Origin: a virus
Lineage: Duplodnaviria > Heunggongvirae > Uroviricota > Caudoviricetes
IMG/VR virus record: IMGVR_UViG_2698536506_000012
Direction: 5' to 3' (one strand)
DNA: 23,101 bases
This document shows, in pieces, positions 1 to 20,430 of the stretch. The position numbers and the translations under genes are program-made. The first letter of the stretch is position 1. Each line of letters begins with the position of its first letter. The notes under the pieces were generated by a model, which ran no database searches, was not told the DNA's origin, and saw nothing but the letters and a program-made list of their open reading frames with translations.

Positions 1-483
1 ATGACGAAGAAAAAAGCACATAAACCTGGTTCAGCGACCATCGCGCTTAACAAGCGCGCCCGTCACGAATACTTTATCGAAGAAGAGTTCGAAGCGGGAC
101 TTGCCCTGCAAGGCTGGGAAGTTAAATCCCTGCGCGCAGGAAAAGCCAATATCAGCGACAGCTACGTCCTTCTGCGTGACGGAGAGGCATTTCTGTTTGG
201 CGCTAACATCACGCCAATGGCCGTGGCCTCCACGCATGTGGTGTGCGATCCTACCCGTACCCGCAAGTTACTTCTCAACCAGCGCGAACTGGACTCATTG
301 TACGGTCGCGTCAATCGAGAAGGCTATACCGTAGTGGCGCTCTCCCTGTACTGGAAAAATGCCTGGTGCAAAGTGAAAATCGGCGTCGCCAAAGGTAAGA
401 AACAGCACGATAAACGTTCAGATATCAAAGAGCGCGAATGGCAGGTGGATAAAGCACGTATCATGAAAAACGCCCACCGTTAA
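1..483 (+). CDS. smpB: SsrA-binding protein SmpB, complete (160 aa)
   Basis: ATG at 1-3 and stop at 481-483. The translation ([25 protein letters not shown]...[10 protein letters not shown]) matches enterobacterial SmpB as I recall it, and the gene sits immediately upstream of ssrA as in E. coli. Confidence 0.96.
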
Positions 484-677
484 ACCTGCACTCCAATTAT
501 TGACCAGTTCCTCACCGCGCCTCCCTCTCCGGCGGCGCGAATGAACATCTTATTGGCTATCACATCCGACACAAATGTTGCCATCCCATTGCTTAATCGA
601 ATAAAAATCAGGCTACATGGGTGCTAAATCTTTAACGATAACGCCATTGAGGCTGGTCATGGCGCTCATAAATCTGG

Positions 678-683
678 TATACT
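678..683 (+). promoter_or_regulatory. Candidate -10 hexamer (TATACT) of the ssrA promoter
   Basis: TATACT lies about 15 nt upstream of the mature tmRNA 5' end, consistent with a short 5' leader removed by processing. I could not find a convincing -35 element at 17 bp spacing. Confidence 0.3.
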
Positions 684-697
684 TACCTTTACACATT

Positions 698-1060
698 GGG
701 GCTGATTCTGGATTCGACGGGATTTGCGAAACCCAAGGTGCATGCCGAGGGGCGGTTGGCCTCGTAAAAAGCCGCAAAAAATAGTCGCAAACGACGAAAA
801 CTACGCTTTAGCAGCTTAATAACCTGCTTAGAGCCCTCTCTCCCTAGCCTCCGCTCTTAGGACGGGGATCAAGAGAGGTCAAACCCAAAAGAGATCGCGT
901 GGAAGCCCTGCCTGGGGTTGAAGCGTTAAAACTTAATCAGGCTAGTTTGTTAGTGGCGTGTCCGTCCGCAGCTGGCAAGCGAATGTAAAGACTGACTAAG
1001 CATGTAGTACCGAGGATGTAGGAATTTCGGACGCGGGTTCAACTCCCGCCAGCTCCACCA
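698..1060 (+). ncRNA. ssrA: tmRNA (SsrA, 10Sa RNA), mature 363 nt
   Basis: Starts GGGGCTGATTCTGGATTCGACGGG and ends GGTTCAACTCCCGCCAGCTCCACCA, giving the tRNA-like acceptor/T-arm with encoded CCA. It contains the internal tag reading frame. Confidence 0.95.
787..819 (+). other. tmRNA tag-peptide reading frame (ANDENYALAA, stop)
   Basis: GCA AAC GAC GAA AAC TAC GCT TTA GCA GCT TAA read directly from the sequence; this is the canonical E. coli degradation tag. Confidence 0.9.
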
Positions 1061-1178
1061 CTTTTGATAGGACCACAACCGGACAGAGACTATAAAAACA
1101 GTCACTTACGGACACTGACCAGACAGCGTTCTGACCAGAAAAAGACAAAAATATACACACAGAATGCACGTGCATTTC

Positions 1179-1216
1179 AAAAAAGCCTCTGATTATGAAG
1201 TCAGAGGCTTTTCTGT
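1179..1216. terminator. Bidirectional rho-independent terminator between ssrA and the prophage late operon
   Basis: Stem GCCTCTGA (1185-1192), loop TTATGAAG, stem TCAGAGGC (1201-1208). An A-run lies 5' and TTTTCTGTTT 3' on the + strand, so both strands read hairpin followed by U-tract. Confidence 0.65.
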
Positions 1217-1259
1217 TTGTAACTAAGGGTAACAATTCAGCATGATGCATACTTACCAA

Positions 1260-1823
1260 TTACGTAACGTCAAACGCTCGAACTGAAGCCAAATCCTCCA
1301 GATTATTCAGTTCTTCCTTCATCTCTCGCTGACGGAAATAAATTTCATCATTGCGATCAACCTGCGCATGAAGCATTGCCGTAAGTAGTTCATCCAGTTG
1401 TTGCATTGACAACTTTACCTGCTGATTAACAGCATCACCCCACGTCATGACGTCCCGTGCTGTGTCGGATTTCGATGCCATCACCACCGGATAAAGACGG
1501 GCCATCGAATCCGGTCCCCCATTCCAGCTATGGCCGTTCCATTCAAAAATGAATGGCTGCGCTTCCTGTTCTGTACGCCATGCTTCAATTTCCCGGCGTT
1601 TGGCTGCTTTTGCTGCTTCCAGCATCTCTGACGTGACGGTGAACGGCGTTATTTCTCCCCATCTCCCGCTTTGCAGCTCCTGCCAGACTCGCTGCCCTGT
1701 CTCTGCTGTATCCGTGGCAGTTGCCGTATACGGAACCGGTTCATCCATGCCATCAAACAACACCCCACAGTCAATCGCGCCATTTTCAAGATAACGCGCA
1801 TTTTCGATGCGTTTTATTTCCAT
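1260..1823 (-). CDS. Tail fibre assembly/chaperone protein, DUF4376-like (about 187 aa)
   Basis: ATG at 1823 with AGGTG 5 nt upstream; stop TAA at 1262-1260. The C-terminal half (EMLEAAKAAKRREIEAWRTEQE...WGDAVNQQVKLSMQQLDELLTAMLHAQ) follows the pattern I recall for DUF4376 fibre chaperones, and it lies immediately 3' of a fibre gene. The ORF-track start at 1856 overlaps the upstream gene and is less likely. Confidence 0.7.
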   Translation of the reverse strand: MEIKRIENARYLENGAIDCGVLFDGMDEPVPYTATATDTAETGQRVWQELQSGRWGEITPFTVTSEMLEAAKAAKRREIEAWRTEQEAQPFIFEWNGHSWNGGPDSMARLYPVVMASKSDTARDVMTWGDAVNQQVKLSMQQLDELLTAMLHAQVDRNDEIYFRQREMKEELNNLEDLASVRAFDVT

Positions 1824-1830
1824 AAAACAC

Positions 1831-3255
1831 CTACGCAATACGTATGAACAAACCAATCATGACACTGGCTGACCCGGCAGACCCGAGCCCATCGCCTGAC
1901 AGTGCCCGATACGACCCCGGCATACCACCACCAGAACCCCGCACATATACGGAAACGCTGTCGTTATATCCAACCCCGCTACCGGTCGTGCCGTGACACA
2001 TAAATTCAACCGCGCTCAGGCGTGAACCCGGATAGCTGTAACCGCGTTTTATCCGGCGGTCGGTGTCTGCGTCTCCCTTACCGTTATAAGCCGCCAGTAC
2101 AAGGCTGCCTGCACCGTACCAGCCGTCCGTGGTACCGGGAGCAATACCGGACAGAAGATAGATAATGTCCTGTGAGGTAATCTTCAGATTTTCCCAGCCA
2201 GTCAGATAACCATTACCTGTTGTCCAGTAGCGGTTGTAATAAACATCGCCATTAATACCGTAGAAAATAATGGCCTTTGCTGTATATCGCGGCTCCGGTG
2301 GATTATTGCGTGCCTCAACCCACCGGATGCGGACCATCCCGTTAAACAACACACCTCCGGATATGATTTTACTGTCACCCTCAACAAAATATTCACCCGG
2401 CGTCGCATTCCTTACCCAGGACAGAAAATCATCCTCTGTGTTAAAACGGATACGCTCTGCGGGCAAAAAAATATGCCCAAAACCAAATGCACCGGGTGTC
2501 GCCAGACGGCCTTCAGTCCGGTCACGAATGTCGCTCTGTGGCGTCATTGTGGCTGCGCTTTTCAGTCCAAGATTATCACGGGATTCCTGCTGAGCCTCTT
2601 CACCTTCATCAGCCAGCTCTGATAAACGATTCGCCGTTTTCAGTGTCGCAGATAACGCAGTATCAATATCCTCCCTGACATGCTCTGCATCAGATGCGGC
2701 CTTTTTCGCGGCTTCAGCATCCTGCCTGACCTCTGCGGCGGTATCCTCAACCTGTGAGACCAGAGTTTCGGCCTGTTGTTTACCCTCCGCAACCGCGTCG
2801 GCGTTCTGCTGAACACCTTCCACCAGTTTTTTTACATCTTCTTTTGCCCGGGCGGCAGCGTCTGCATGTTGCCCTGCCTGTCGTTCGCTTTCTGTTGCAG
2901 TTTCCGCGCTCTGCTGCGCCTGCGCCACCATTTCCTCAAATCGTTTGACGACATCCGGCTTCAGGTCACCTTCATCGATGGCTGTCAGAAAATCATTCAG
3001 CGTGCCGGGCTTTGAATCGTGGTAAACCGAAATATCACCGACACAGTATTCCCTTTCAATACACGACCGAAGATAAACTTCATATTTTCCGGTCTGAGCT
3101 TCAAAAGCATATTCTCCTGCCGGACCTGTCACCACTGTAGCCACCGTTCTCATGACCACTGCGGATGTATTCTGTCGGGCTTTCAGAAGAATATGATGAC
3201 CGGACATAGGACGGCCAGCGCCATCAGCAAGAATCCCTGAGATGAGTGTGGACAT
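1831..3255 (-). CDS. Second side tail fibre protein (about 474 aa) with a Stf-like N-terminal anchor domain
   Basis: ATG at 3255; the ORF-track start at 3324 is a TTG. The N-terminus (MSTLISGILADGAGRPMSGHHILLKARQNTS...[12 protein letters not shown]...) aligns by eye with the Stf N-terminus in this window ([31 protein letters not shown]...[12 protein letters not shown]). It continues into a charged, probably coiled region and a distinct Gly/Tyr-rich C-terminal domain. Confidence 0.8.
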   Translation of the reverse strand: MSTLISGILADGAGRPMSGHHILLKARQNTSAVVMRTVATVVTGPAGEYAFEAQTGKYEVYLRSCIEREYCVGDISVYHDSKPGTLNDFLTAIDEGDLKPDVVKRFEEMVAQAQQSAETATESERQAGQHADAAARAKEDVKKLVEGVQQNADAVAEGKQQAETLVSQVEDTAAEVRQDAEAAKKAASDAEHVREDIDTALSATLKTANRLSELADEGEEAQQESRDNLGLKSAATMTPQSDIRDRTEGRLATPGAFGFGHIFLPAERIRFNTEDDFLSWVRNATPGEYFVEGDSKIISGGVLFNGMVRIRWVEARNNPPEPRYTAKAIIFYGINGDVYYNRYWTTGNGYLTGWENLKITSQDIIYLLSGIAPGTTDGWYGAGSLVLAAYNGKGDADTDRRIKRGYSYPGSRLSAVEFMCHGTTGSGVGYNDSVSVYVRGSGGGMPGSYRALSGDGLGSAGSASVMIGLFIRIA

Positions 3256-3295
3256 AAATTTTTCCCCAAAAAAGCCAGCTTTCGCCGGCAATGCT

Positions 3296-3877
3296 TTAAC
3301 TGACAGGTTGCTGCGGCCACTCAATTTCCGGCGCTAAAGATGTATCAACCCGGTTCAACAACACCCGATACTTCTTCCAGGCCGCCAGCAACGAGGTTTC
3401 TTCCTCCGTTGCAATTTCCAGATCTGCAGCATCCTGAAGCGGTGAAATATGCTCACTGGCTACCTGCATCAGGCTGTTTTTTGTTTCTTCCGCCTCCCGG
3501 ATCCGGAACAGTTTTTCTGCTTCCGTATCCTTCACCCAGGCTGTGCCGTTCCACTTCTGATATTCCCCTCCCGGCGATAACCAGGTAACATTTTCCGGTA
3601 ACGGACCAGGTTCAGAAATAAATAATGCATCCCCTGATGCCACGTCATAGACGGTTTTACCCCGATGGTCTTCAACGAGATGCCACGATGCCTCATCACT
3701 GTTGAAAACAGCCACGAAGCCAGCCGGAATATCTGGCGGTGCAATATCGGTACTGTTTGCTGGCAGACCTGTATGAGGTGGAATGTATGCATCACCTTCA
3801 CCAATAAATTCATTGGTTCCGGCCAGCAGATTATAAATTTTTATGGTCCGTGGTAGTTCACTCATTCTGAATGCCAT
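3296..3877 (-). CDS. tfa: Tail fibre assembly protein Tfa (193 aa)
   Basis: [54 protein letters not shown]... closely matches lambda Tfa as I recall it. ATG at 3877 overlaps the stf stop (TAATG). Confidence 0.93.
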
Positions 3878-6201
3878 TATGCAAGCCTCACAATATAGTT
3901 AAATGCGATGTTTTTAACGGTGTTTTCCGCGTTACCCGCAGCGTCAACAGTAATGGTATGTCCGTGTGAACCAATACTGAAAGAATGGGCATGAGCACCG
4001 ATAACAACCGGATGCTGGTGCGCACCAATACCAACTGTATGCGCATGTGCACCGGCACTCACGGCTGTACCGGACAATGAGTGACTGTGGTTGCCCTGGC
4101 TGTCCGTTTTCGATAAATAAGCAATACCCTGTGTGTTGGTTCCTTTAACTGTGGATAAACTTCCTGTAATGGTTGCTGTTCCATACTGACTCCAGCCAGA
4201 ACTGTTCATCCTTAAACCACTTGTGTGGGCATGAGCACCCGCGGCCCCTGTTGAACCGCTCAGACTGTGAGCATGAGCCCCCGTGTTATTCGTCGATTTG
4301 GTGCCGTAATCGAAACTGCCTGTTGTTTTCGTCCCGTAATCAAACGACGATGTGGTTTTCGTCCCCAAATCCGTACCGGATGCACTGGCACTGTGGGTGT
4401 GCGACTTAATTCCATCCTGTTCCTGAGACAATACAGCACGACCGCTGGCGGGTTTCCCCTTGATTGTCCAGCCTCGCATATCAGGAAGCACACCCGATGG
4501 ATACGCGACAGCAAGTTTTGGGTAGGCTGATTTGTCAAACGCCTGCCCCTGCATCAGGACGTAGCCAGACGGAACGATATCTGATGGCCACGGGATCGGC
4601 GCACCTGCCGGAAAGGCCGAATTCTCTCCGGCCCCAAGGTATTCAAGAACATCTGCAACGGAATTTTTTGCCAGAATATCCCTGCCAACCTGAGTCAGTT
4701 CAGTCAGGCTGGCGGCATCATTTTCCGTAAAATACGGTAATTTATTTTTCGCCGTGGAAAGCCCTGCCAGCGCCGTCAGTGTCGCATTCTTCGGTTGTTT
4801 ACCCGCAAGCGCGTTAGTCATGGTGGTAGCAAAATCTGGATCATTCCCGAGCGCTGCGGCCAGTTCATTCAGCGTATTCAGTGCGTCAGGTGACGCGTCG
4901 ATAACATCTGCAATCGCGGCCAGTACAAAATCGGTGTTCGCAATCTGGGTATTGTTTGTTCCCCTGAGCGCGGTTGGTGCTGTTGGCGTTCCGGTCAGTG
5001 CCGGACTGTCCAGTGGGGCTTTTCTGTTCGTTTCATCCATTACCACCTTAACCGCCTTTGGCGTTGCAGCAAGCGTTTCAGACGTGCTGTTGGTTGCACT
5101 GCTGAGCTGCACTATCCCCTTTCTCGTTGTGTCCGCATCCTCAAGCGCGACAGCTGAAGCTATATCTTCTGCACGTTTTGCCGAATTTTCTGCACGTATT
5201 GCCGCCGCTTCTGCCGCACTTTTGCTCTGCGATGCTGATACCGCACTTCCCGCAGCCTCTGTCGCCTTCGTGGATGCCGTTGACGCACTCCCCGCCGCCG
5301 CTGTTTTTGCGTCTGCCGCGGCAGAAGCGCTCCGTTCCGCTGCTGTTTCAGATGACCTGGCATTCGTCTCGGACGTTTTTGCCGCCCTGGCAGAATTTTC
5401 TGCCGCCGTTGCCGAGGAAGCTGCACGACCGGCACTTGATGATGCGTTCGTTTCTGATGATTTTGCTGCCTCTTTTGAGGCCACCGCATCTCGTGCTGAA
5501 GTGGCGGCCTCTGACGCTTTCGTGGTCGCGGTGGAGGCAGACGTGGCGGCTGATTGTTGTGACGCTGCAGCATTCGTTTCTGACGTTTTCGCCGCACCGG
5601 CACTGGTGGCCGCCGCGTTTTTTGAGGACTCTGCGGCTGCGGCACTTTTTTCCGCTTCAGTGGCCTTTGCTGATGCCGCTTCTGCGCCGGAGGACGCTTC
5701 CTGAGCTGACGATGCAGCCTGTCCGGCGGACGTGCTGGCGGCGCGTGCTGAGTCAGTTGCATCAGTCACAAGGGCCGCGACCTGAGCAGCTGATGCACTG
5801 GCATCGCCGGCTGATTTCTTCGCGTCTGCCGTACTCTGTGCCACCACGGACGCGTTACGCGCCACCTCTTCCACCATCAGTTCAAGACGGCGCAGCACCT
5901 CCGGCCGGGCATCATCCTCCGTCATGGCACAGAGAAAATCATTCAGTGTCCCCGGTTGTGAATCTTCATACACGGTGATGGTCCCGGCGTGCGATGGTGG
6001 AAAACCGTCAACCTGCAGGATGACACTGTACTGACCGTACTCCACATCCATGCTGTAACGCCCGGCTTCATCCGGATTCTCTGAGCCCACCGTGTTCACC
6101 ACCACCGTGGTGCTGTTACGTCTGGCTTTCAGCTGAATGGTGCAGTTCTGTACCGGTTTTCCTGTGCCGTCTTTCAGGACTCCTGAAATCTTTACTGCCA
6201 T
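3877..6201 (-). CDS. stf: Side tail fibre protein Stf, full length (774 aa)
   Basis: ATG at 6201; the ORF-track start at 6207 is a GTG two codons upstream. The N-terminus [26 protein letters not shown] matches lambda Stf. It has a long Ala/Ser/Thr-rich shaft and a C-terminal region with repeated GAHAHS, GNHSHS and GSHGHT (HxH) motifs. Confidence 0.93.
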
Positions 6202-6212
6202 ATTCACCCCAC

Positions 6213-6238
6213 AAAAAAGCCCACCGGTTCCGGCGGGC
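6213..6238 (-). terminator. Rho-independent terminator downstream of lom
   Basis: On the - strand: AGCCCGCCGG-AA-CCGGTGGGCT (one mismatch) followed by TTTTTT. It sits between the lom stop (6266) and the stf start (6201). Confidence 0.6.
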
Positions 6239-6265
6239 TGTCATAACACTGTGTTACCTGGCTAA

Positions 6266-6886
6266 TCAGAATTTATAACCGACCCCAACGATGAATCCGT
6301 CAGTACGCCAGTCGCCACTGCCGGAGCCTTCATAAGCAATATCAACAACGACGGACGCTGCCGGATTAATCTGTATACCTGCACTCCACGCCACTGAGGT
6401 ATGCCGCATTGCTCTTTCGTCCCTGGCGGTGGTCGTCTCTTTCATATACCCGGGAGTGATTTCCGTCTTACGGTAATCCCTTGTACTGCCGGACCACCGA
6501 CTGTGAGCCACTCCGGCCATGGCGTACGCACTGACCTGCTTACTGATTTGTAAAACCGGTCCGGCCATCACGCTCACATAACGTCCACGCAGGCTCTCAT
6601 AGTGAAACGTATCCTCCCCGGTCATCACTGTGCTGCTCTTTTTCGACGCGGCGAACCCCAGGGAAGCCATCACCCCCACACTGTCCGTCAGTTCATAACG
6701 GTACTTCACGTTAATCCCTTTCAGATGACTCACACCGGTATCCCCGCCCGACAACGACGGCAATGTACCCGGTTTCACCTGAAAATAGCCCACCGTAAAC
6801 GTACCATGTCCACCTTCCGCACGGGCCGGAGTGACTGTCACCGCAAGTGCGGCAAAGACAGCAACGGCAATACACACATTACGCAT
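6266..6886 (-). CDS. lom: Outer membrane protein Lom (Ail/Lom family, 206 aa)
   Basis: ATG at 6886 with a GAGGTGA ribosome-binding site. It has an N-terminal signal peptide (MRNVCIAVAVFAALAVTVTPARA) and a beta-barrel-like alternating sequence ending ...GFIVGVGYKF. Size and position between J and stf are as in lambda. Confidence 0.92.
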   Translation of the reverse strand: MRNVCIAVAVFAALAVTVTPARAEGGHGTFTVGYFQVKPGTLPSLSGGDTGVSHLKGINVKYRYELTDSVGVMASLGFAASKKSSTVMTGEDTFHYESLRGRYVSVMAGPVLQISKQVSAYAMAGVAHSRWSGSTRDYRKTEITPGYMKETTTARDERAMRHTSVAWSAGIQINPAASVVVDIAYEGSGSGDWRTDGFIVGVGYKF

Positions 6887-6911
6887 CGTTCACCTCTCAC
6901 TGTTTTATAAT

Positions 6912-6931
6912 AAAACGCCCGTTCCCGGACG
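6912..6931 (-). terminator. Weak hairpin plus U-tract (possible attenuator) between J and lom
   Basis: On the - strand: CGTCCG-GGAA-CGGGCG (6-bp stem with one G-U pair) followed by TTTTATTAT. Confidence 0.35.
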
Positions 6932-6947
6932 AACCTCTGTAACACAC

Positions 6948-9900
6948 TCAGACCACGCTGATGCCCAGCGTCTGTTTCTTAATCACCATAACCTGCACAT
7001 CGCTGGCAAACGTATCCGGCGGAATATCTGCCGAATGCCGTGTGGACGTAAGCGTGAACGTCAGGATCACGTTTCCCCGACCCGCTGGCATGTCAACAAT
7101 ACGGGAGAACACCTGTACCGCCTCGTTCGCCGCGCCATCATAAATCACCGCACCGTTCATCAGTACTTTCAGATAACACATCGAATACGTTGTCCTGCCG
7201 CTGACAGTACGCTTACTTCCGCGAAACGTCAGCGGAAGCACCACTATCTGGCGATCAAAAGGATGGTCATCGGTCACGGTGACAGTACGGGTACCTGACG
7301 GCCAGTCCACACTGCTTTCACGCTGGCGCGGAAAAGCCGCACTCGCCGCCTTTACAATGTCCCCGACGATTTTTTCCGCCCTCAGCGTACCGTTTATCGT
7401 ACAGTTTTCAGCTATCGTCACATTACTGAGCGTCCCGGCGTTCGCATTCACGTTACCACTGATATCGGCATTTTTCGCCGTCAGCCGGCCATCAGGTGTC
7501 AGGGAAAATGCCGGAGGATTACCGCCGCTGGTAATGGTGGGGGCCGTCAGGCGTTTCAGGAACACGTCATTCATGAATATCTGATTGCCCTGCGCCACAA
7601 ACATCGGCGTTTCATTCCCGTTTGCCGGGTCAATAAACGCGATACGATTGGCGGCAACCAGAAACTGGCTCAGTTTGCCTTCCTCTGTATCCTCCATGCT
7701 GAGGCCAAGTCCCGCGACATAATGTCTGCCGTCTCTGGTCTGCTCAATTTTGACGCCCCACATGGCATTCCATTTATCACTGGCGTCTTTCCACTCTTTC
7801 GAAAACTCATCCAGTCTGCTGGCGTTATCCTCCGTCAGGTCGACTTTTTCCAGCAACTCCTTGCCGAGATGAGATTCGGTTATCTTGCCTTTGAAAAAAT
7901 CCAGGTAACCTTCCGCATCATCGCTCGCCCGACCGACAGCCTCCACGAATGCCGATTTGCCAACGGTGTTCACACTGCGAACGTAAAAATAATAATCATG
8001 GCCCGGCCTGATATTGATACTGGCGGCTATCCAGTACAGCGCCGTACCAAGATAACGCGCGCTGGTTTCAACCTGCCTGATATCGGTAATCTGCTTTTCC
8101 GAGAACCAGAACTCAAACTGCACTGTCGGGTCATATACAGCCAGTTTCGGGACCGCCGTTATCTGAAAATAGCCCGGCGTCAGCTCAATCTGTGACGGTG
8201 CAGCCGGTGCGGCAATCCGGAAAGAGACCGACGCCGCATCGCCCTGTTGCCCCCACGCATTTACCGCCCGGACCGTCAGCGTGTAATGCCCCAGCGCCAG
8301 TTGCCTGAAGCGGTATGTGGTTTCCGTCGTCCTGGCCGTGCTGACCAGCCGCTCACTGCCGTCATCCGCTGCCACGGTCAGGCGAAGCAGGAAGCTCACG
8401 CCCTTCACCACCTTCGGCGTGTCCCAGCGCGCCAGCACCTGATACTCCCCGCTGTCTGCGGTGACTTCGGCGGTCAGGTGCTGCACCGCTGGCGGCGTGA
8501 CACCATTCACCGTGCCGCTCTGGTCGCCGTCAAAGTGCGCCCCGTTATCCACGATGGCCTCTTTTTCCGGTACATGCTGCACGGCGGTGATGGCATACGT
8601 GCCGTCGTCGTTCTCACGGATACTCACGCAGCGGAACAGGCGCTGGCGCAACGTCGGCAGCTTCAGCCCCCATACGCTGTATTCAGCAACGCCGTCAGGA
8701 ACACGGCTCACTTTCACCTTCACGCCGTCGGTGACGGACTGAACCTCCACGCTGACCGGACTCCCCTGCCCGTCAACCAGGCTTATCAGCGTGGTGCCGG
8801 AAGATGGCAGCGTGATTTCACGGTCGAGCGTCAGCGTCCGGGTCTGGCTGTTTACCGCCAGCACGCGCCCGCCGGTGCTGATACCGGCATAGTCATCATC
8901 ACAGATTTCAATGACATCGCCCGGCACATGGCGAAGCCCTTCTGCGCCCACGCTGAAGTCCACGGTCTGCGTTTCCAGCAGTTCTGTTTTAATCAGCCAC
9001 AGCCCGGCGCGGTGTGCCTGCCCCCGGCTGGTACAGCCAAAAGCATCCATCTTCGTGACGTTACGACCGTAACGGGCAATGGCCTGCGTATCCTCCACAA
9101 GCTCCGTCGCCGTCTCCCAGCCGTTATCCGGGTCAATCCAGTTCACCTCCACGGCATTATGGCGGTCTTTCAGGGCGCTGAAGCTGTAACGGAACGGCGC
9201 GCCATCATCCGGTATCACCACATTGCTGCGGTTATAGGTCCACACCTTATCCGACGGTCTGTCCTGCACGAACGTCAGCGTCTGTCCGTTCCATACCGGC
9301 ATACAGCGCATCGCCGAGCAGAAATCGCTGAGCACATCCCACGCCTTACGCTGTGATGCCAGATAAGCATTACAGGTGATACGCGGCTCCGTGCCACCAT
9401 AGCCATCCGGTACTGACTGGTCACAGTACTGACCGATAACATACAGGGTCCATTTATCCACCTCCGCTGCCCCGAGACGTTGTCCCATGCCATAACGCGG
9501 ATGGGTGAGCATGTCCCACAGGCACCAGGCCATGTTGTTACTGTATGCCGGTTTAAGTGTCCCGTCCCAGATACCGCTGTACTGCCGCGTCTGTGGATCA
9601 TAGTTCGACGGTACCTGCAGAATGCGTCCACGAAGATGGTAATTACGGCCCACCTGCTGGCTGCCAAACTGCTCTGAATCCACCTGTACGCCGACCAGTG
9701 CCGTGTTCGGGTATCCCTGTTTCACATCGATGATTTCGGTGTATGACGACCAGAGCGTTTTATTCTGCAGCTGGTCTGTGGTGCTGTCAGGTGTCATCCT
9801 GCGCATCCGGATACTGAACGGGCGCGGCGGCAGGTTATCCACCACCACCGAGGCCAGATACTGCGAGGTGGTTTTACCCTTAATGGTGATGTCTTTTTCT

Positions 9901-10346
9901 GTCACCCAGGCGCCGTTACGCTGGATCTGGGCCAGTAATCTCACTTCTGACGGATTGCGGTCCCCCTGAGACGTGGTTTCCACCAGAGCCTGCACACCAA
10001 ACGTAAAACGCAGGCGGTCGATATTTTCTGATGTGATGGTCCGGGTGATCGGCGTGTCATATTTCACTTCCGTACCCAGTACCGTCTCGGAGCCGGAGGA
10101 CTCAAAACCCTCCGGCGGAGTCTGCTCCTGCTCACCGGCACGGAACACCACCGTGACCCCGGAGAAATTGGCCTTACCTTCACTGTCCAGCACCGGCGTA
10201 CTGTTCAGCAACACGCTTTTCATTCCGTCCACCGGTCCTTCAATCGGCCCTTCACTGATCGCATCAATCACGCTCAGTAACTGCGTGGATTTCAGGTTAT
10301 CTTTCGCTTCGCGAGGAGTGTGCCCCTTGCTGCCACCTTTACCCAT
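6948..10346 (-). CDS. J: Central tail fibre / host specificity protein J (1132 aa)
   Basis: ATG at 10346. The N-terminus [24 protein letters not shown] and the overall length match lambda J, and it lies between I and lom. Confidence 0.95.
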
Positions 10347-10406
10347 TTATCTGGCTCCATTAACAACAAAACCGCCCGGAGGCGGTTTCACATAAAACGT
10401 TTTACA

Positions 10407-11054
10407 TTAGCGACCAATCACCACAACCTGACCACCATCACCCTCATCAGCAGTACTGATACTCTGTGAAATCACACGCGACCCCACACGCATCTCACCA
10501 TACAGTACCGGTAACGGATTCCCCTGGGCGATCATATTATCCAGCGAGGAAAAAAAGGTGTTCTGTTTGCCGTTATCCGCGGACTCCATGGACGGCGTTT
10601 TGATGGCCGGTGTCAGCATCTGCGCTATCCCGCCGAGGATCATACTGGCCCCGGCGGCATACATCCCCGTAAGTGCTGCCGCACCCAGCCAGCCCGCGGG
10701 GTTCCACCAGGCTACCGCAACAACCACAGCACCCAGGATGGTCTGAAAAATTCCGCCATGCTTTGCACCGGCAAGCCGGGGAACAATGTGGATCACCGCA
10801 CCGTCCGGTAACGGCTCATGGAGCTGTGCCGTTACCCCGGACTCGCTGACATCCCGCCCGGCGATACGTACCTGATACCAGCCGTCACTCAGTTTCTGAC
10901 GAAACGACGGAAGTTGTGTGGCCAGCGCCCGGATGGCTTCAGCCCCCGTTTTCACACGAAGGTCGATACGGCGACCAAATCGTTGCAAATCCCCGTAAAG
11001 GCAGAGGCGTGCCATGCCCGGTGCCGCCAGAGGGAGTGTGTGCGTCGCTGCCAT
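10407..11054 (-). CDS. I: Tail assembly protein I (215 aa)
   Basis: ATG at 11054. MAATHTLPLAAPGMARLCLYGDLQRFGRRIDLRVKTGAEAIRALATQL... and the C-terminus ...EGDGGQVVVIGR match lambda I. Its 5' end overlaps the 3' end of K, as in lambda. Confidence 0.9.
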   Translation of the reverse strand: MAATHTLPLAAPGMARLCLYGDLQRFGRRIDLRVKTGAEAIRALATQLPSFRQKLSDGWYQVRIAGRDVSESGVTAQLHEPLPDGAVIHIVPRLAGAKHGGIFQTILGAVVVAVAWWNPAGWLGAAALTGMYAAGASMILGGIAQMLTPAIKTPSMESADNGKQNTFFSSLDNMIAQGNPLPVLYGEMRVGSRVISQSISTADEGDGGQVVVIGR

Positions 11055-11695
11055 TTTTCTGTATACCTCTCTCGTTTACTCAGTTGTTCAGGAATATGGT
11101 GCAGCAGCTCGCCGTCACCACAGTAAATGGCGGCATGATTCGGCACCGATGAACCAAAGCAGCACAGCAACACATCGCCCGGCTGCGCCGCTGACAGGGT
11201 GACCGGGTAAAAGCCGGTATCTGCCATGTTGTCCAGGTAAAGATTCTGACCGTTACGCCACCAGTCATCCTCACGATGAAAATCCGGTATCTCAATTCCT
11301 GCCAGATGATAAGCGTCCCGGAACAGCGTGTAACAGTCCGTCACCCCGTGATCAAAGCGCCTTCCGGTCAGATGTGGCACGCAGCGGAATTTATGGAGAG
11401 CCCCCCGACAGACCAGCCACCACGGCAAATCACTCTGTACCTGCAGCTGACGGTCGGCTTCACTCAGCCAGGGCAGACCACCGGGATGGCTGTGGACCAG
11501 CGCCACCACCTCGCCCTGTATTTGTGCCCGCAGCCAGTCTTCCGGTACCATCCGGAAACACGCCTCCGGAGTACCGGAGATATTCACGCAGGGAAGATAC
11601 CTTTCCCCCTCCGGCGTTCTCACCACGAAGCCGCACGACTCCGCTGGCGCACATCGCCGGGCGTGCGCCAGAATCACTGATTCAGTCTCTGTCAT
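10952..11695 (-). CDS. K: Tail assembly protein K (MPN/JAMM plus NlpC/P60 domains, about 247 aa)
   Basis: ATG at 11695, 4 nt after the L stop. It carries a JAMM motif HSHPGGLPWLSEAD (HxH-x7-S-x2-D) with an upstream Glu, and an NlpC/P60-like Cys (GVTDCYTLF) and His (NHAAIY). The ORF-track start at 11770 is a GTG inside L and is unlikely. Confidence 0.85.
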   Translation of the reverse strand: MTETESVILAHARRCAPAESCGFVVRTPEGERYLPCVNISGTPEACFRMVPEDWLRAQIQGEVVALVHSHPGGLPWLSEADRQLQVQSDLPWWLVCRGALHKFRCVPHLTGRRFDHGVTDCYTLFRDAYHLAGIEIPDFHREDDWWRNGQNLYLDNMADTGFYPVTLSAAQPGDVLLCCFGSSVPNHAAIYCGDGELLHHIPEQLSKRERYTEKWQRRTHSLWRHRAWHASAFTGICNDLVAVSTFV

Positions 11696-11699
11696 GGAT

Positions 11700-12398
11700 T
11701 TACTGCGAAAGTTTATTGATGGAAAGGAAACCGCCAAAGTTACCGACGTTATGACGTGACTTACAGCCACTCAGGCATTTACTGCATTTATCCTTCGTGA
11801 TATCAGACGTCGGCTGGTCATATTCATCCGCGACAGCCGGACCGTGATAACCGCACTCATCACCGCGATAGGTCCAGGTACAGGTGTTGGCCAGCATGGT
11901 ACGTCCCGGGAAAACCGCACCGTCTGTCTCCGCTGGCGAGGCCAGAACAAACGTTGCCGTCACCGCCGTCAGATCGCTGCACTGTTCAATACGCCAGTAA
12001 CTGATCACCTCCTGTTCCGGATCGGCTTCACTGTTTCCGTTGGTAAAATTCACCGCATCCAGAAAACGGGCGTAAACCTTACGCCGGATCACCGTTCCGC
12101 CAGCCAGACTCTGTAAATCCTCCACCATCCCGGTAACCATCCCGTACAGATTGGACACCGTCAGGGTGGGGCGGGCGCTGCTTCCCTTGCCTTTCATTTC
12201 AAACCCTGCTCCCTGAACAGGATACACCTCATATTTCCGGCCCTGCCAGGTGACGGCCTCCCCCTTCTCGTTAGGCTCATTACTGAAAAAATAACGCTCC
12301 CCGCCAATCTCTGTCAGATCAATTTCCCAGAGTACCAGACTGGCAGACTGCTCCGTACGGGTACATTCATTCAGTGTTTCCTGCCGGATATCCTGCAT
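11700..12398 (-). CDS. L: Minor tail protein L (232 aa)
   Basis: ATG at 12398 preceded by GGAGG. The sequence carries the Cys-rich C-terminal stretch (CSKCLSGCKSRHN) I recall for lambda L, and the gene sits between M and K. Confidence 0.92.
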   Translation of the reverse strand: MQDIRQETLNECTRTEQSASLVLWEIDLTEIGGERYFFSNEPNEKGEAVTWQGRKYEVYPVQGAGFEMKGKGSSARPTLTVSNLYGMVTGMVEDLQSLAGGTVIRRKVYARFLDAVNFTNGNSEADPEQEVISYWRIEQCSDLTAVTATFVLASPAETDGAVFPGRTMLANTCTWTYRGDECGYHGPAVADEYDQPTSDITKDKCSKCLSGCKSRHNVGNFGGFLSINKLSQ

Positions 12399-12407
12399 CC
12401 GTCCTCC

Positions 12408-12737
12408 TCATACCACGACCTGTTCAAAATTTGCGGTTACCGTGACCCACAGCGCCCCCACACTGGACGACCATTTACGGCAGACCACCCGGACAGGTGT
12501 CCAGCCATAAGGCGGTGTCCACTGAAACGCCCTGACCCCACCGTGCCGGGCCAGAAACGCTTCCAGCGCCTGATGCTCCCCTTTACGGACACGGATCGTG
12601 ACACTGTACGTTGGCAACAGAGGATTCAGTCCCGCCGGACGACGCTGTTCATAACCATCACCCAGTTTAACTGTCACCACTTTTGGCTCTGAATCCACCT
12701 TCATATCCGGACGGACTTTCCAGCTAAATATCTCCAT
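12408..12737 (-). CDS. M: Minor tail protein M (109 aa)
   Basis: ATG at 12737 overlaps the H stop (ATGA coupling). MEIFSWKVRPDMKVD...WTPPYGWTPVRVVCRKWSS...FEQVV matches lambda M. Confidence 0.9.
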   Translation of the reverse strand: MEIFSWKVRPDMKVDSEPKVVTVKLGDGYEQRRPAGLNPLLPTYSVTIRVRKGEHQALEAFLARHGGVRAFQWTPPYGWTPVRVVCRKWSSSVGALWVTVTANFEQVVV

Positions 12738-15700
12738 CACCGGTATACTCCGCTTAACTGCCCGCCATCACGGGACTGTTGTTGCATAAAATCTTCTGCA
12801 GCCCTTTTCCCCAGGTTGTAAACCGCCTGCATGACTTCCGGCCCAATCTGTCCGTTCTGGCCATCATTATTGATCTCGATGTTGTACTGCGGCGCAAACA
12901 TCACCATCCCCGAACCACAGGTCGCTGCCACAACACCCAGCTTACCGTCAGCCCCCCTGCGCAAGGGCAGGATAGCCTCAGGCCCCGCTTCACCCATCAC
13001 CCCCGCGCCTTTTGCAAAAGCAAAAAACGTTGGACGGTTAACCACCGTGCCACTGTAGCGACTCAAATCAGCAGACTGATAAACACCACCTTCTGCATTG
13101 GTTTTCACATCACCGAAATCAAACCCCATCACACTGCCAATCCCTTTGACAGCCTTCATCATGGTTGCCTGCGCCAGAATTTTTGCCATATCTGACAGCA
13201 CAGATGAGGTGAAAGATTTGAAATTGAGTTTGCCGGTGGTAACAAAAGTTGCCAGACCATTTCCCATACTACTGAAAGCAGACATAAACATCTGTTCTGC
13301 AGTCCCGGCAGCATTATCCGCGTCGGCAGTAAAATTCATGAACGCGCGTTTTGTACCGTTTTTCCACTCCCCCTGCGCAGCATCCATCTGTTGCCAGTAG
13401 CGGCGATTCTCATTCAGTTTCCGGTTCAGACTGTCTGTCAGCGTCTGTTCAGCCTTCCGGTATGCGTCAGAACCATACGAGCCTTTCTGCTTACTGTCCC
13501 GTTCAAGTTGCTCCAGCTGTTGCTGGTACTGCTGTCGTAGACGCAACTGCGACTGGTACCGCTGCCGTTGCTTATCGCCCATTCCCGCCATGGCAACGTC
13601 CAGATCGTGTTGCTGACGCTGTGCGCGCTCTTCCTCAGCCAGTTGACTGGTCAGCTGAATGGTCTTTTTCTTCAGGTCATTGAGGGCAGTCTGCTTCTGC
13701 AGCTCCTGCTGTTTTGCATCCAGCAGCGTCAGTGCCTGAATCAGCTCATCCTTGTGAGCCAGAACACTTTTTTCATCTGCTGTCAGTTTTTTACCGGCTA
13801 AATCGCTGATACGCTGCTGAAGGGCCAGAAGCTGTTTATGCGCTTCTGTCATCCTTTCAGTAGCCATGCCCGCTGACTGTCTGGCGGCGGCAATCTGTCC
13901 CTCCACCTGCGCCTGTTGCTGGCTGTACTGCAGTAATAACCGGGTGGCCTCATCATTACGGGTGGCAGGCGTTTTTTTCTTAATGGCTTTTTCGTAACGT
14001 TCATTTTCACGCTGTATCGCTGCGTCCCTGACCGCCTGATCGGCGTACTGCATGGCATTAATACGCGCAATTTCACGCTGATGTCGTGCTGCTTCCGTTT
14101 CGTTCATCCGGTTCAGCGCGGCATTTTCAGCATTCCGGCGTTTCTGCTGCTCCTGATAATTTCGCTCAGCCTGCTCTTTTGCATCCTGCAAATCCTGCTG
14201 GCGTTTTCGCTCTTGCAGCGCATCCAGTTGTTGCTGATCGTATTCCCCCGTGGTGGACGCCTTAGTCCACGGAAATTTCTTCGCCCGCTGAATTTTTTCC
14301 TGCAGCGACGCAATCTGCGCATCAAGGGAATCTTCCCGACCAATGTTCATGGCCGCATCCCAGAACTGCTTCCACCAGTCAGACAAGGTTTGCAGCGTAC
14401 TGCCCAGCGCATTGAGGTTATTATCAATATCCGACGTACGTTTACCGGTTTCCTCTGCCAGTGCAGACATGGCTATCCGGGCGGCGTCACTGGTGCGCCC
14501 CTGCTCTCCGAGCACACGGATCTGTTCAAGCTGGGTGGCTGTCAGAAAATGCAGTTCATCATCCAGCGCCTTCGCAGCACTGACCGGATCATCCTTCAGC
14601 CGTTTAAACTGACTGATGGTGTCACTGACAGACTGCCCTACCGAGCGTTCCATCTGTGCGGCAGCTTTCGCCACCATACCAATATCGTTACCGTGAAATG
14701 CACCGCTCCCCACTACCTGCGCCAGTGACCCCGCCATGGCATGTTGCGTGATGCCATTACCGGAAAGATTTTTACTGAGCGCCCACAACTGCCCGGCTGT
14801 CACACCGGCATAGTGTCCGGTGAGCTCAAGCTGCCGGTTAAAGGCTTCGCCTTCTTCCTGCCCCTCCATCCAGGCTTTACCCAGACCAATAACCGCAGCA
14901 GTGATCCCTCCGATAACTCCCCCCACCGCCAGGCCTTTCGGCGTCATTAATTTATCAATCCAGCCGGCACGGTTAGCCAGGGTGATCCCGGAGCCACGAA
15001 GCGCACCGAAATTACCACGCGCCAGTTCACCAATCATGACCCCCAGCTCCCGACGGGCTGCCGCACTTTTCAGTCCCAGCGAATGTGTGGTGTTTCCGGC
15101 TTTCTCCATTTTACGGATGTACACCTCCGCGGCACTGCTGCACCCAAGTTGTGCCGCCTTTGCCCGAAGCAGTTCCGTCGTGGTCATTTTCTGGCGACTT
15201 GTCTGTTCTTTCAGCTGACGAATAAATGCGGTTTTCTGGCGGGTGGCCGTTTCCTCTGCCTGTGTCAGAACGCGGGTTTTCGCTGTCACCTCAGAAATCA
15301 GGGCCAGATAATCCTGCTGAGCAATCCCGCCACTGTTTCTGGCCTGTCGGATCTGCTGCTGAATACGCTGTAACTCCTGCAGCCCCGCACTGGCCTGTTT
15401 TACGCTGTCGATCTGACGATAAAATGCGGCAGCCATCTTATCCTGCGCCGCAGCCAGCGCAGCCGCCTGAACCTGCTCCTCCCGCATCTGACGACTCAGG
15501 GCCTCCATCCGCAGGCGCGCCCTTTCCACATCTTCCGCCAGCGAAACATGCCCCTGCGCATGCTTCACCACGGCCTGAGTCTGTATCACCGTCGCGCTGG
15601 CAGCCTGTTTCTGACTTTCCTCAAACCGTTTCATACGGGCTTCGGCCCGCTCCGCCTCCCTTGCTGTACCATTCAGCAGATTTTTTACACGCGGAAGCTG

Positions 15701-15760
15701 CTCTTTAAAATCGGCGGTATCAATGCTTAAATCAATGACAAGGTCAGCAATCTGGTCCAA
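12737..15760 (-). CDS. H: Tail tape measure protein H (1007 aa)
   Basis: The N-terminus (M)DQIADLVIDLSIDTADFKEQ aligns with the lambda H N-terminus, and the C-terminus ...NNDGQNGQIGPEVMQAVYNLGKRAAEDFMQQQSRDGGQLSGVYR aligns with the lambda H C-terminus. The only in-frame start near the conserved N-terminus is TTG at 15760, with GGAGG about 8 nt upstream. Confidence 0.9.
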   Translation of the reverse strand: MDQIADLVIDLSIDTADFKEQLPRVKNLLNGTAREAERAEARMKRFEESQKQAASATVIQTQAVVKHAQGHVSLAEDVERARLRMEALSRQMREEQVQAAALAAAQDKMAAAFYRQIDSVKQASAGLQELQRIQQQIRQARNSGGIAQQDYLALISEVTAKTRVLTQAEETATRQKTAFIRQLKEQTSRQKMTTTELLRAKAAQLGCSSAAEVYIRKMEKAGNTTHSLGLKSAAARRELGVMIGELARGNFGALRGSGITLANRAGWIDKLMTPKGLAVGGVIGGITAAVIGLGKAWMEGQEEGEAFNRQLELTGHYAGVTAGQLWALSKNLSGNGITQHAMAGSLAQVVGSGAFHGNDIGMVAKAAAQMERSVGQSVSDTISQFKRLKDDPVSAAKALDDELHFLTATQLEQIRVLGEQGRTSDAARIAMSALAEETGKRTSDIDNNLNALGSTLQTLSDWWKQFWDAAMNIGREDSLDAQIASLQEKIQRAKKFPWTKASTTGEYDQQQLDALQERKRQQDLQDAKEQAERNYQEQQKRRNAENAALNRMNETEAARHQREIARINAMQYADQAVRDAAIQRENERYEKAIKKKTPATRNDEATRLLLQYSQQQAQVEGQIAAARQSAGMATERMTEAHKQLLALQQRISDLAGKKLTADEKSVLAHKDELIQALTLLDAKQQELQKQTALNDLKKKTIQLTSQLAEEERAQRQQHDLDVAMAGMGDKQRQRYQSQLRLRQQYQQQLEQLERDSKQKGSYGSDAYRKAEQTLTDSLNRKLNENRRYWQQMDAAQGEWKNGTKRAFMNFTADADNAAGTAEQMFMSAFSSMGNGLATFVTTGKLNFKSFTSSVLSDMAKILAQATMMKAVKGIGSVMGFDFGDVKTNAEGGVYQSADLSRYSGTVVNRPTFFAFAKGAGVMGEAGPEAILPLRRGADGKLGVVAATCGSGMVMFAPQYNIEINNDGQNGQIGPEVMQAVYNLGKRAAEDFMQQQSRDGGQLSGVYR

Positions 15761-16456
15761 ATCTCATTCCTCCCGATATACCTTCCCCCAGATGCATCAG
15801 CTCTTCATCCGTGCGTTCAGGGATCACCCTGTCATCCGTAACCAGACTGAAATCATCCGCCGGAATACGTTCACCGGACACCATCTGAACCATCAGCGAC
15901 TTCAGTGTGGAAATCTGTGCATCCAGCCAGATATCCCCGAAACTCTGCTTCCTGAAGAAATCCCCCCATTCGCCCAGTTCTGACGCTGACATTTCTGATA
16001 ACATCCGCCGCCAGTCTGCCCGCCGGAACTCACGGGCAAGCTGCATCACAAACTGCATCTCCCGCGTCAGGACTTTTCCGGTGTCAGAGGAACCTGTTCA
16101 CCGTTCTGAACATCACCGGTGGAGACCGGCATACCACTCAGGGATAAAACCAGACTGCCCCCGTCGCCAAGCGCGTCATAAGACCAGGTGTTTTTTACAT
16201 CCTCATTCAGCGCATCCACATCCTGTGACGGGTCCGTATTCCACATTGACCGGGAAACCAGCCAGGCGTTGATATCCATCCCCATACGCAGAAATTCAAT
16301 CTGACGTTCAGCCACCGGCATGGCATCATCCAGGGCGTCAAACTCAGCCGTCCGTTTCTGGACAAACGACAGATATTCCACCCGCTGCAGCCCGGACAGT
16401 TCTGTCATAACCACAGACTGATCACCGTAATTAAATGTGTCCTGTTTCAGAAACAT
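15744..16456 (-). CDS. Tail assembly chaperone G-T (fusion made by a programmed -1 frameshift near the end of G)
   Basis: A 104-codon ORF (15744-16058) lies in the -1 frame relative to G and overlaps its 3' end. That frame is open back to a stop at 16100-16098, and the arrangement sits between V and H as in lambda G/GT. Confidence 0.7.
16067..16456 (-). CDS. G: Tail assembly chaperone G (about 129 aa)
   Basis: ATG at 16456 (MFLKQDTFNYGD..., like lambda G MFLK...) with a GGAGAAGG ribosome-binding site; stop TGA at 16069-16067. The ORF-track start at 16477 is a TTG. Confidence 0.85.
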   Translation of the reverse strand: MFLKQDTFNYGDQSVVMTELSGLQRVEYLSFVQKRTAEFDALDDAMPVAERQIEFLRMGMDINAWLVSRSMWNTDPSQDVDALNEDVKNTWSYDALGDGGSLVLSLSGMPVSTGDVQNGEQVPLTPEKS

Positions 16457-16473
16457 AACCTTCTCCGCAAACA

Positions 16474-16498
16474 ACAAAAAAACCCCGGCATACCGGGG
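16474..16498 (-). terminator. Stem-loop plus U-tract immediately downstream of V
   Basis: On the - strand: ACCCCGG-TATG-CCGGGGT followed by TTTTTTTGTTGTTT, lying between the V stop (16517) and the G ribosome-binding site. Confidence 0.6.
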
Positions 16499-16516
16499 TA
16501 CAAACAGACCGTCTGA

Positions 16517-17257
16517 TTAACCACCATTAACGGTAATACTGGCCACTGCGACCTGTGCGCCACCCGCTGTCATCCCGACAATCGAGGTGCTTCCCGCTTT
16601 CACACCTTTCACCGTGGCCACCATGCCACTCAGTGTAACCGTGGCGATCTCAGGAGAGGATGACGCCACACTCACCGTTTTATCAGATGCATCTTCCGGT
16701 ACTGTGCTGAATGTCAGCGTCGTCGTTGCCCCCACCCTGACACTGGCAGATGCCGGTGCCACCGTCAGACCGGTCACGCTAACAAGCCCGGTGCCTTCCT
16801 CTGCCAGATACGGACGTCCCACACCGCTGATTTTCACAGTGCGGGTCATCACCTCTTTAGAGGTAACAGTTTTCCCCAGCGAGCTCAGCCAGCCACGGAA
16901 AACATCAACAGTGCCGTTGGGATATTTGATACGAAACGCACAGACTTCACCAGAGTCGAACAACTGAACCAGTTTTTTCTGCCCGCTGTCACCCGGACGC
17001 CAGGCCAGCGTCGCCGAAGTATCACCGACGGATTTTTGCCCCTGGGTTGTCGTTTTCCAGTCAGCATTTTCATCATCGAGATAATCGTCATCTTCCGCAT
17101 CTGCAGTCATTTCGCCCGGCTGTAAATCCTTCACCATCGCAAGACGCAGCCAGTCAGTATCTGACAACGGAGCCGCAAAGGCGTCCCCTTTGCCGGTATA
17201 CATCCAGAACGTCGTCCCCGCGCCCTTCGTTTTTTCCAGTGGATTCGGTGTTGGCAT
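16517..17257 (-). CDS. V: Major tail protein V with a C-terminal Ig-like (Big_2-type) domain (246 aa)
   Basis: ATG at 17257 with AAGGAG 6 nt upstream. MPTPNPLEKTKGAGTTFWMY...NGTVDVFRGW matches lambda V. The ORF-track start at 17275 is a TTG. Confidence 0.92.
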   Translation of the reverse strand: MPTPNPLEKTKGAGTTFWMYTGKGDAFAAPLSDTDWLRLAMVKDLQPGEMTADAEDDDYLDDENADWKTTTQGQKSVGDTSATLAWRPGDSGQKKLVQLFDSGEVCAFRIKYPNGTVDVFRGWLSSLGKTVTSKEVMTRTVKISGVGRPYLAEEGTGLVSVTGLTVAPASASVRVGATTTLTFSTVPEDASDKTVSVASSSPEIATVTLSGMVATVKGVKAGSTSIVGMTAGGAQVAVASITVNGG

Positions 17258-17271
17258 TACCATCTCCTTGT

Positions 17272-17673
17272 TCAATTTGTATATGTGATCTGATACGTGA
17301 TTTCCGCCATCGCCCAGGTGGCCATCTCGTTATCACGCTGATAGTTAAATCCCTGCGGGATCATGGTATCGATAAGATCTGAAAGTGCCGGAATATCTGT
17401 CAGAGCCGGGTAAATAATGTCATCCATCCACGTATCCAGTTCTGTATCCGGTGCCTGCGCCCGGATAAAGACCGCGACATGCAGAACCGCCTGCCAGTCA
17501 GCCTCATCCACCATTTTTCCGGTGTACTGCGCATCGCTCAGCCATACCGCCACGGCGGGCAGTTCCTGCGCATCAATAAAAGCAGGAAGTCCATCGAACA
17601 GGACGGTATTCTCCCTGCACGTCGCTTTCAGGCACGACAATACGGCCTGACGAATTTGTGTGTGTCGGTTCAT
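17272..17673 (-). CDS. U: Tail terminator protein U (133 aa)
   Basis: ATG at 17673 overlaps the Z stop (ATGA). ...PAVAVWLSDAQYTG...DIPALSDLIDTM... matches lambda U. Confidence 0.92.
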   Translation of the reverse strand: MNRHTQIRQAVLSCLKATCRENTVLFDGLPAFIDAQELPAVAVWLSDAQYTGKMVDEADWQAVLHVAVFIRAQAPDTELDTWMDDIIYPALTDIPALSDLIDTMIPQGFNYQRDNEMATWAMAEITYQITYTN

Positions 17674-18609: not shown

Positions 18610-18622
18610 CTTTCCCCCACAT

Positions 18623-19003: not shown

Positions 19004-19025
19004 CACATCTCTCCTGTGCGATAAA

Positions 19026-19048
19026 GAAAAAGGCGGGAATATCCCGCC
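19026..19048 (-). terminator. Stem-loop plus U-tract immediately downstream of E
   Basis: On the - strand: GGCGGGA-TAT-TCCCGCC followed by TTTTTCTTTAT, lying between the E stop (19054) and the FI ribosome-binding site. Confidence 0.6.
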
Positions 19049-19053
19049 TGACC

Positions 19054-20082: not shown

Positions 20083-20097
20083 AATTGACTTTCCTTT

Positions 20098-20390: not shown

Positions 20391-20430
20391 TTTCTCAGTC
20401 TCCTGATTTATCTGAATCACGGATCCCCGC

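Follow-up and report, generated by a model that had tools for sequence, protein, structure and literature searches.

Positions 1034-1259 of the DNA analysed here (a stretch of 23,101 nucleotides from IMG/VR record IMGVR_UViG_2698536506_000012, referred to below as the window) most probably represent attL, the left junction of a lambda-like prophage that looks complete, measures ~48 kb and is integrated into the 3' end of ssrA, the E. coli tmRNA gene, and we put the probability of this reading at about 0.92. It fixes the prophage boundary at 1060/1061 and the attachment core at 1034-1060, which is of little import beyond correct annotation. It also implies that the last part of the tmRNA gene, together with its terminator, is probably supplied by the phage, and the geometry of attP explains why in this phage group the tail-fibre end, and not the integrase gene (int), lies beside ssrA. 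The junction between ssrA and the adjoining phage arm can further serve as a reliable marker for lambdoid prophages of the ssrA type, including Stx1 and Stx2f phages and phages carrying type III secretion system (T3SS) effectors.

On the host side, the window contains smpB (1-483, plus strand), found as an open reading frame (ORF) whose product in E. coli C5 and other genomes is WP_000162574.1, and downstream of it ssrA (698-1060, plus strand), which was detected by ARAGORN with the tag peptide ANDENYALAA and is covered over its full length by Rfam RF00023 with 295.8 bits. One end of the element thus bears its target tDNA intact, as expected in the Islander/Williams scheme. The first ORF past ssrA (1260-1823, minus strand) has its stop codon at 1260-1262, so that ARAGORN, Rfam and the ORF list all bear out the limits of 1060 and 1260 that the preliminary description gives for where the tmRNA gene ends and the first phage gene stops. 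This last gene of the late region encodes a protein of 187 aa, annotated in C5 as well, that matches DUF4376 in Pfam (E = 1.5e-15) and PHROG 1141, 'tail fiber protein' (E = 3.5e-83). It had been called a fibre chaperone. The association with tail fibres holds, while the chaperone role is a prediction from its placement after a tail-fibre gene, in the slot of a fibre assembly factor. The protein does not belong to Caudo_TAP; the real Caudo_TAP gene is the one at 3296-3877.

All the phage genes that follow lie on the minus strand and converge with ssrA, among them the second fibre gene, tfa, stf, lom, J and the tape measure gene, in agreement with the earlier claim that the late end of a lambda-like prophage adjoins ssrA. 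The DUF4376 gene is followed by a second tail-fibre gene (1831-3255) with an N-terminal phage_tail_N domain (PF08400, E = 1.2e-52; also in the C5 annotation), and this by the first tail-fibre module (3296-6207; ORFs, Pfam and C5 annotation), composed of the Caudo_TAP tfa gene (3296-3877, E = 1.7e-43) and an stf-like gene that extends over 3877-6207 as an ORF and starts at 6201 in the C5 annotation. The remainder of the late operon occupies 6266-23101 and continues past the end of the window; with the C5 annotation mapped onto the window, it holds lom, J, tail assembly genes and genes for tape measure, tail tube, head proteins, an S49 peptidase and the portal. The order matches that of lambda (terminase, portal, protease, capsid, tail tube, G/T, tape measure, M/L/K/I, J, lom, stf, tfa), as judged from the C5 annotation, which is colinear with the window, and from the Pfam matches of the fibre genes. 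The other lambdoid traits, a Q antiterminator, immunity of the CI/Cro type and replication genes of the O/P type, are present according to the C5 annotation alone, outside the window.

Within 1260-6207 there are two consecutive tail-fibre modules, stf with the Caudo_TAP tfa and then the phage_tail_N fibre gene with the DUF4376 protein. A breakpoint was noticed near 3314: the stretch 3314-23101 is common to other genomes at ~97% identity, at other chromosomal sites and without 1-3313, so the second fibre module travels with the attachment arm as a mosaic unit of its own. A match to the Rfam 'sRNA' family IS009 (206.9 bits, 3336-3534, minus strand) falls wholly within the 3' half of the Caudo_TAP gene 3296-3877; what this family captures is probably the coding sequence of tfa genes in prophages, not an RNA in its own right.

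The far end of the prophage lies outside the window and was read in the genome of E. coli C5 (NZ_CP010122.1), used as a proxy for the source genome. C5 is identical to window positions 1-20133 at 99.94% without gaps, and coordinates were converted as window = 49562 - position in the C5 region L001. The sole stretch that is not colinear with C5 is 20134-20775, of which 20295-20604 alone matches, at an offset; by coordinate mapping it falls in the S49 peptidase gene. In C5 the prophage measures ~48 kb and runs from ssrA through late, lysis, Q, replication and immunity genes to int. The latter (L001 321-1493), ~47 kb from ssrA, encodes a tyrosine integrase of 390 aa with Arm-DNA-bind_2, SAM-like and catalytic (Phage_integrase) domains in Pfam, which provides, in C5 and outside the window, the integrase inside the element that the Islander/Williams scheme expects. 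It is transcribed toward the sequence CGGGTTCAACTCCCGCCAGCTCCACCA (L001 162-188), which sits 132 nt past its stop codon and is an exact direct copy of all 27 nt of window 1034-1060. The 27-mer occurs only twice in 50 kb of C5, with 0 matches expected by chance, and no second copy of the ssrA 3' end was found within the window itself, which holds a single one. Hence, in the proxy genome, the prophage does carry a displaced 3' tDNA fragment in direct orientation, the repeat that the preliminary description had proposed to look for, and both the integrase and the second att copy lie past the end of the window, as it had predicted.

The DNA past the distal repeat in C5 (L001 1-320; L002 23815-25056) shows no likeness to ssrA. 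A further GC-rich hairpin, ending in a T-run, comes first there, and after it a gene for a P4-type integrase with Arm-DNA-bind_3, Phage_int_M and catalytic domains. The ssrA locus of C5 is therefore a tandem array formed by the lambda-like prophage and a CP4-57-like island. A third ssrA fragment, either the exact 27-mer or its delta-T357 form, was sought in the 26 kb past the array and was absent there; these 26 kb hold IS3 elements and truncated gene remnants of the ypjA type. Outside the window, the early region of the C5 prophage has acquired an IS110 transposase gene, and the prophage further carries a toxin-antitoxin pair of the RelE/ParE kind, a porin gene resembling ompC that follows Q, and a gene for tRNA-Gly that precedes the lysis genes (cargo and insertions at L001 2741-3760, 10217-10844, 16499-17602 and 19726-19797).

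With the integrases of phages LMessi, phi467, PhiR12_1-5 and Cronobacter phiES15, that of C5 shares 87-89% identity, and the complete genome of the free phage LMessi displays the corresponding region uninterrupted: int, a P arm of 132 nt, the same 27-mer, the P' arm, a dinI-like gene and tail-fibre genes on the opposite strand. The P' arm of LMessi shows 83.5% identity to window 1030-1235 and has a hairpin at the same place. Judged from this arrangement, the LMessi junction is an undisrupted attP, and it has the 3' part of the tDNA between both arms, as the Islander/Williams scheme expects of the attP of a free element. The records of phiES15 and of the PhiR12 phages end in the same P' arm. 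While int and the core-proximal P arm span only 132 nt in C5 and LMessi, 1.3-1.5 kb separate them in phi467 (L006 5175-6600), PhiR12_1 (L007 1-1520) and phiES15 (1-1560), and these stretches hold one to three small genes. They may be insertions into the P arm that left a pair of wATGCAC motifs (see below) beside the core, and the differing lengths indicate that the spacing between int and attP is not fixed. A literature search on PhiR12 and LMessi retrieved a paper for neither phage. As a group, LMessi, PhiR12 and phiES15 share with the window a homologous P' arm, and phi467, an Stx2f phage, a related integrase, whereas the structural and early modules of LMessi, PhiR12_1-5, phi467 and phiES15 differ from those of the C5 prophage.

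The strongest competing view accepts a true attL but regards the prophage as a fixed, cryptic remnant, in which the arm and its hairpin would persist only as a terminator for ssrA and the late operon. We consider this possible, at odds of about one to three. The IS110 transposase gene in the early region speaks in its favour, and this insertion may render the C5 copy immobile; likewise, Sp17, the O157 prophage at ssrA, lacks int and is not excised (PMC2669165), and in prophages using other integrases the arm persists with a degenerate core as a fossil. On the other hand, both att copies of C5 are perfect, its int is full length, with 390 codons' worth of protein and all domains, the late, lysis and replication genes are annotated as intact, and the close relatives of the integrase belong to isolated or induced phages.

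The limit between host and phage DNA was located by comparison among complete E. coli genomes. A query covering 700-1400 found a match in 5426 out of 5426 of them and, in K-12 MG1655 and most E. coli, similarity ends at query base 361, that is, at window position 1060, the CCA end of ssrA; in K-12 the DNA past this end is annotated as CP4-57. Since the similarity shared across E. coli stops there, the boundary between host and variable DNA is, by alignment, 1060/1061. Together with the identity block at 1034-1060, this agrees with the earlier proposal that the attachment boundary falls inside 1040-1260. The contiguous junction of ssrA and arm was present in 519 of the 5426 genomes (query 960-1240, coverage of at least 80%). 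Any homologue of 1061-1259 was found in 572, and every copy examined stands beside phage genes; this larger figure was rejected as a count of ssrA junctions, given that some copies lie inside prophages at prfC and ompW.

The core (1034-1060, plus strand) is the attL copy of the direct repeat, a 27-bp block of identity with the second copy in C5 and with the attP of LMessi. It comprises the T stem-loop, CGGG-TTCAACT-CCCG, the 3' strand of the acceptor stem and CCA. The first identical position is the second base of the T stem, and a 7-bp spacer separates the perfect inverted half-sites CGGG and CCCG. In the sublocation classification of Williams, a 7-bp spacer between symmetric T-stem halves is the pattern of a crossover in the T-loop. 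Strand exchange would accordingly take place within the 7-bp T-loop TTCAACT (1038-1044), our candidate overlap, and on this model 1045-1060 plus part of 1038-1044, i.e. the last 16-23 nt of ssrA, would be phage-supplied yet identical in sequence to what they replaced. The two repeat copies being identical, sequence alone cannot assign the ssrA 3' end to host or phage, a point already made in the preliminary description.

The proposed mechanism is site-specific recombination by the tyrosine integrase into the ssrA 3' end. In the phage circle, int reads toward attP, followed by a P arm of ~130 bp, the 27-bp core and a P' arm of ~176 bp that ends in the probable terminator hairpin, past which the late tail-fibre operon ends, reading toward attP from the other side. 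The ssrA-like core and int share one orientation. When this attP recombines with ssrA on the chromosome, the P' arm and the tail-fibre end therefore come to lie beside an intact ssrA, whereas int goes to the opposite end together with the P arm and the 3' fragment that the phage displaced. Having the tail fibres first follows from this lambda-type attP geometry, in which core and int share one direction, and needs no rearrangement. With no mismatch between the two att copies, the prophage should be able to excise without damage to ssrA, unlike CP4-57 in K-12.

One could instead suppose that the tail-fibre end came to lie beside ssrA through a secondary event (inversion, recombination between prophages or loss of an integrase) and not by direct integration. 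Lambdoid prophages do recombine often, the terminal module 1-3313 is mosaic with respect to the rest, with 3314-23101 shared at 97% without it, and in CP4-57 and similar P4-type islands int does sit beside ssrA. However, the core and both arms of the LMessi attP are already oriented so as to predict the layout, C5 has clean 27-bp direct repeats at both ends with int beside the distal copy, and 519 genomes from many lineages have this layout. On the grounds of the LMessi attP geometry and the C5 repeats we rejected a rearrangement, which in our estimation is very improbable.

The phage side of the junction begins with the P' arm of attP, the arm distal to the integrase, delimited at 1061-1236 (~176 bp, plus strand) by homology to phage arms. 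Across 12 phages and prophages, core and arm align nearly without gaps at 86% mean column identity and diverge past ~1236; the remaining 1237-1259 form a variable spacer up to the stop codon of the first phage gene. Conserved elements of the arm include three CNGGACAS repeats (1078-1086, 1107-1115 and 1118-1126), a AAAGACAAAAATAT tract and two wATGCAC motifs (1151-1158 and 1162-1169) spaced by 11 bp, which are joined at 1170-1176 by a third copy in inverted orientation. In the P arm of C5, LMessi and phi467 this wATGCAC pair is found again, at -79/-68 from the core. The occurrence of these pairs in both arms and the arm-DNA-binding domain of the integrase make the motifs candidate arm-type Int sites. 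In many relatives a dinI-like gene lies between the P' arm and the fibre genes, and the window is without it. Such genes are annotated in CP-1639, O157, TB06052 and PhiR12 and readable in the LMessi sequence; most relatives have the gene, with LexA-box-like CTGT-N8-ACAG repeats ahead of it (regions compared with window 1237-1259: L004 6261-6509, L008 4056-4304 and L005 ~5606-5870).

From these comparisons, 1061-1236 belongs to the phage and not to the host: the arm is joined to core and int in LMessi, a free phage, it is present in the PhiR12 and phiES15 records, and the stretch up to 1259 recurs only in prfC prophages, which upholds the earlier claim that 1061-1259 is not of host origin. That this stretch should be conserved host DNA past ssrA, with the true prophage boundary elsewhere, is hardly conceivable, for although it is geneless and holds a terminator suited to ssrA, the divergence of K-12 and most E. 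coli exactly at 1060 and the presence of the arm in LMessi, PhiR12 and phiES15 led us to reject this option, against which also stand the restriction of homologues to 572 of 5426 genomes, with all examined copies beside phage genes, and the arms inside prophages at prfC and ompW.

A terminator scan detected in the arm a hairpin at 1181-1212 (stems 1181-1192 and 1201-1212), preceded by an A-run and followed by a T-run. It folds at -22.9 kcal/mol (z = -4.9) when read from the plus strand and at -23.5 kcal/mol (z = -5.4) from the minus strand, and 0 out of 200 shuffled sequences were as stable. In the alignment of 12 relatives, 93.8% of the cells of the paired positions hold standard pairs, a value that drops to 30-62% when the 3' partners are slid by 1-3 columns, and four of the 12 pairs change on both sides, e.g. 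GCCUCUGA/UCAGAGGC versus ACCCCAGA/UCUGGGGU. The stem is followed by TTTTCTGTTTGT on the plus strand, where the ssrA precursor could end, and by TTTTTTGAAAT on the minus strand, where the run TTTTTT would fit an end of the late operon, so that a G+C-rich hairpin with a U tract, as in intrinsic terminators, exists on both strands. This conserved structure on a variable sequence, together with the A- and T-runs, suggests that the hairpin is probably a bidirectional intrinsic terminator for ssrA (plus strand) and for the late tail-fibre operon (minus strand). Of the bidirectional terminator described earlier between ssrA and the phage, the hairpin itself is thus supported by folding and covariation, while termination on both strands is a deduction from them. 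As integration parts ssrA from its prior terminator, the phage arm plausibly supplies a replacement for the native one.

Copies of the arm were also seen away from ssrA, inside lambdoid prophages at prfC (strains GB089 and E10) and ompW (GF4). There, 23-26 of the 27 ssrA core bases precede the arm with its hairpin (GB089 L010 1474-1698; E10 L011; GF4 L013 1473-1660), reading ...GGTTTCAACTCCCGCCAGCTCCACCA or ...CGGTTCAACTCCCGCCAGCTCCACCA, with a degenerate left half-site and with sequence unrelated to ssrA upstream. The integrases of these prophages are of other types, and in the prfC-type prophages dinI lies on the other side of the core copy. A nested prophage of the ssrA type was considered for the prfC copy of GB089 and discarded, for that prophage has no more than one integrase, which is of a different type, and its phage modules occur only once. 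This combination points to a fossil of an ssrA-type attP, and the internal copies look like half-attP sequences that stayed with the tail-fibre end when the int module was exchanged. More speculatively, core and P' arm could be a self-contained module that is retained after an integrase switch, the internal copies acting as secondary attB sites and/or being kept for their terminator, but we hold this to be unlikely. If it were true, ssrA-type phages could integrate into resident prophages via the internal copies, and prophage-in-prophage integration has been described for other att sequences (PMC8112680); the module could also be retained as a bidirectional terminator that insulates the late operon and the host genes from each other.

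When compared with known systems, this phage group resembles lambda in having the end of the late genes (the b region in lambda) on one side of attP and int reading toward attP on the other, candidate arm-type sites on both arms and an integrase that would be heterobivalent. In both, the prophage map runs from int to J and the tail fibres. Lambda differs in its location between gal and bio, in its 15-bp core without an RNA gene and in the N-terminal domain of its integrase, which belongs to another Pfam family.

CP4-57 and other P4-type islands have in common with this prophage the ssrA target and the restoration of the ssrA 3' end by the element, but their int lies directly beside ssrA, is transcribed away from it and encodes Arm-DNA-bind_3 and Phage_int_M domains. 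In these islands attP is upstream of int, which integration therefore brings next to the target tRNA or tmRNA gene, and such an int-proximal layout is seen in the second island of the C5 array. Directly past ssrA the window has a tail-fibre gene instead of a P4-type integrase gene; the P4-type integrase of C5 belongs to the next island of the array, and the architecture of the prophage integrase is a different one. Excision of CP4-57 deprives ssrA of T357 and inactivates tmRNA (PMC10107115).

Among lambdoid phages, ssrA is an accepted insertion site of those carrying Stx and effectors (PMC2323221, PMC8065619, PMC10673567). Stx1 phages occupy it in O111 (PMC2323221), and it is the commonest site of Stx2f prophages in E. 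albertii (PMC10673567). In all inspected loci (WS4202, ETEC4085, TB06052, 2013C-4538 and CP-1639), the side that adjoins ssrA is that of tail fibres or cargo; the ssrA prophage of O157:H7 WS4202 carries espM2 and espW, that of 2013C-4538 carries espK, and ETEC4085 is an ETEC strain. The O157:H7 prophage at ssrA is named Sp17 in Sakai (PMC2323221) and consists of two prophages in tandem, Sp17a-b (PMC2669165), resembling the tandem array in C5. The WS4202/Sp17 and 2013C-4538 prophages coincide with the window in the ssrA-arm junction and its orientation, but they are heavily degraded, carry T3SS effectors (espM2, espW, espK) and have arms that are 78-79% identical. Another counterpart is CP-1639 (AJ304858), a cryptic Stx1 prophage at ssrA of E. 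coli O111:H- 1639/77 (Creuzburg et al. 2005, as cited in PMC8065619 and PMC10673567), whose GenBank record was deposited together with its chromosomal integration site. Like the window, it has the tail-fibre end beside the ssrA 3' end and an identical 27-mer, and its P' arm, hairpin included, is a homologue with 80.7% identity; unlike the window, it has stx1, dinI between arm and fibre genes and different tail-fibre genes, and it is described as cryptic. The tail-fibre-first junction at ssrA is therefore already known and common, present in about one in ten complete E. coli genomes.
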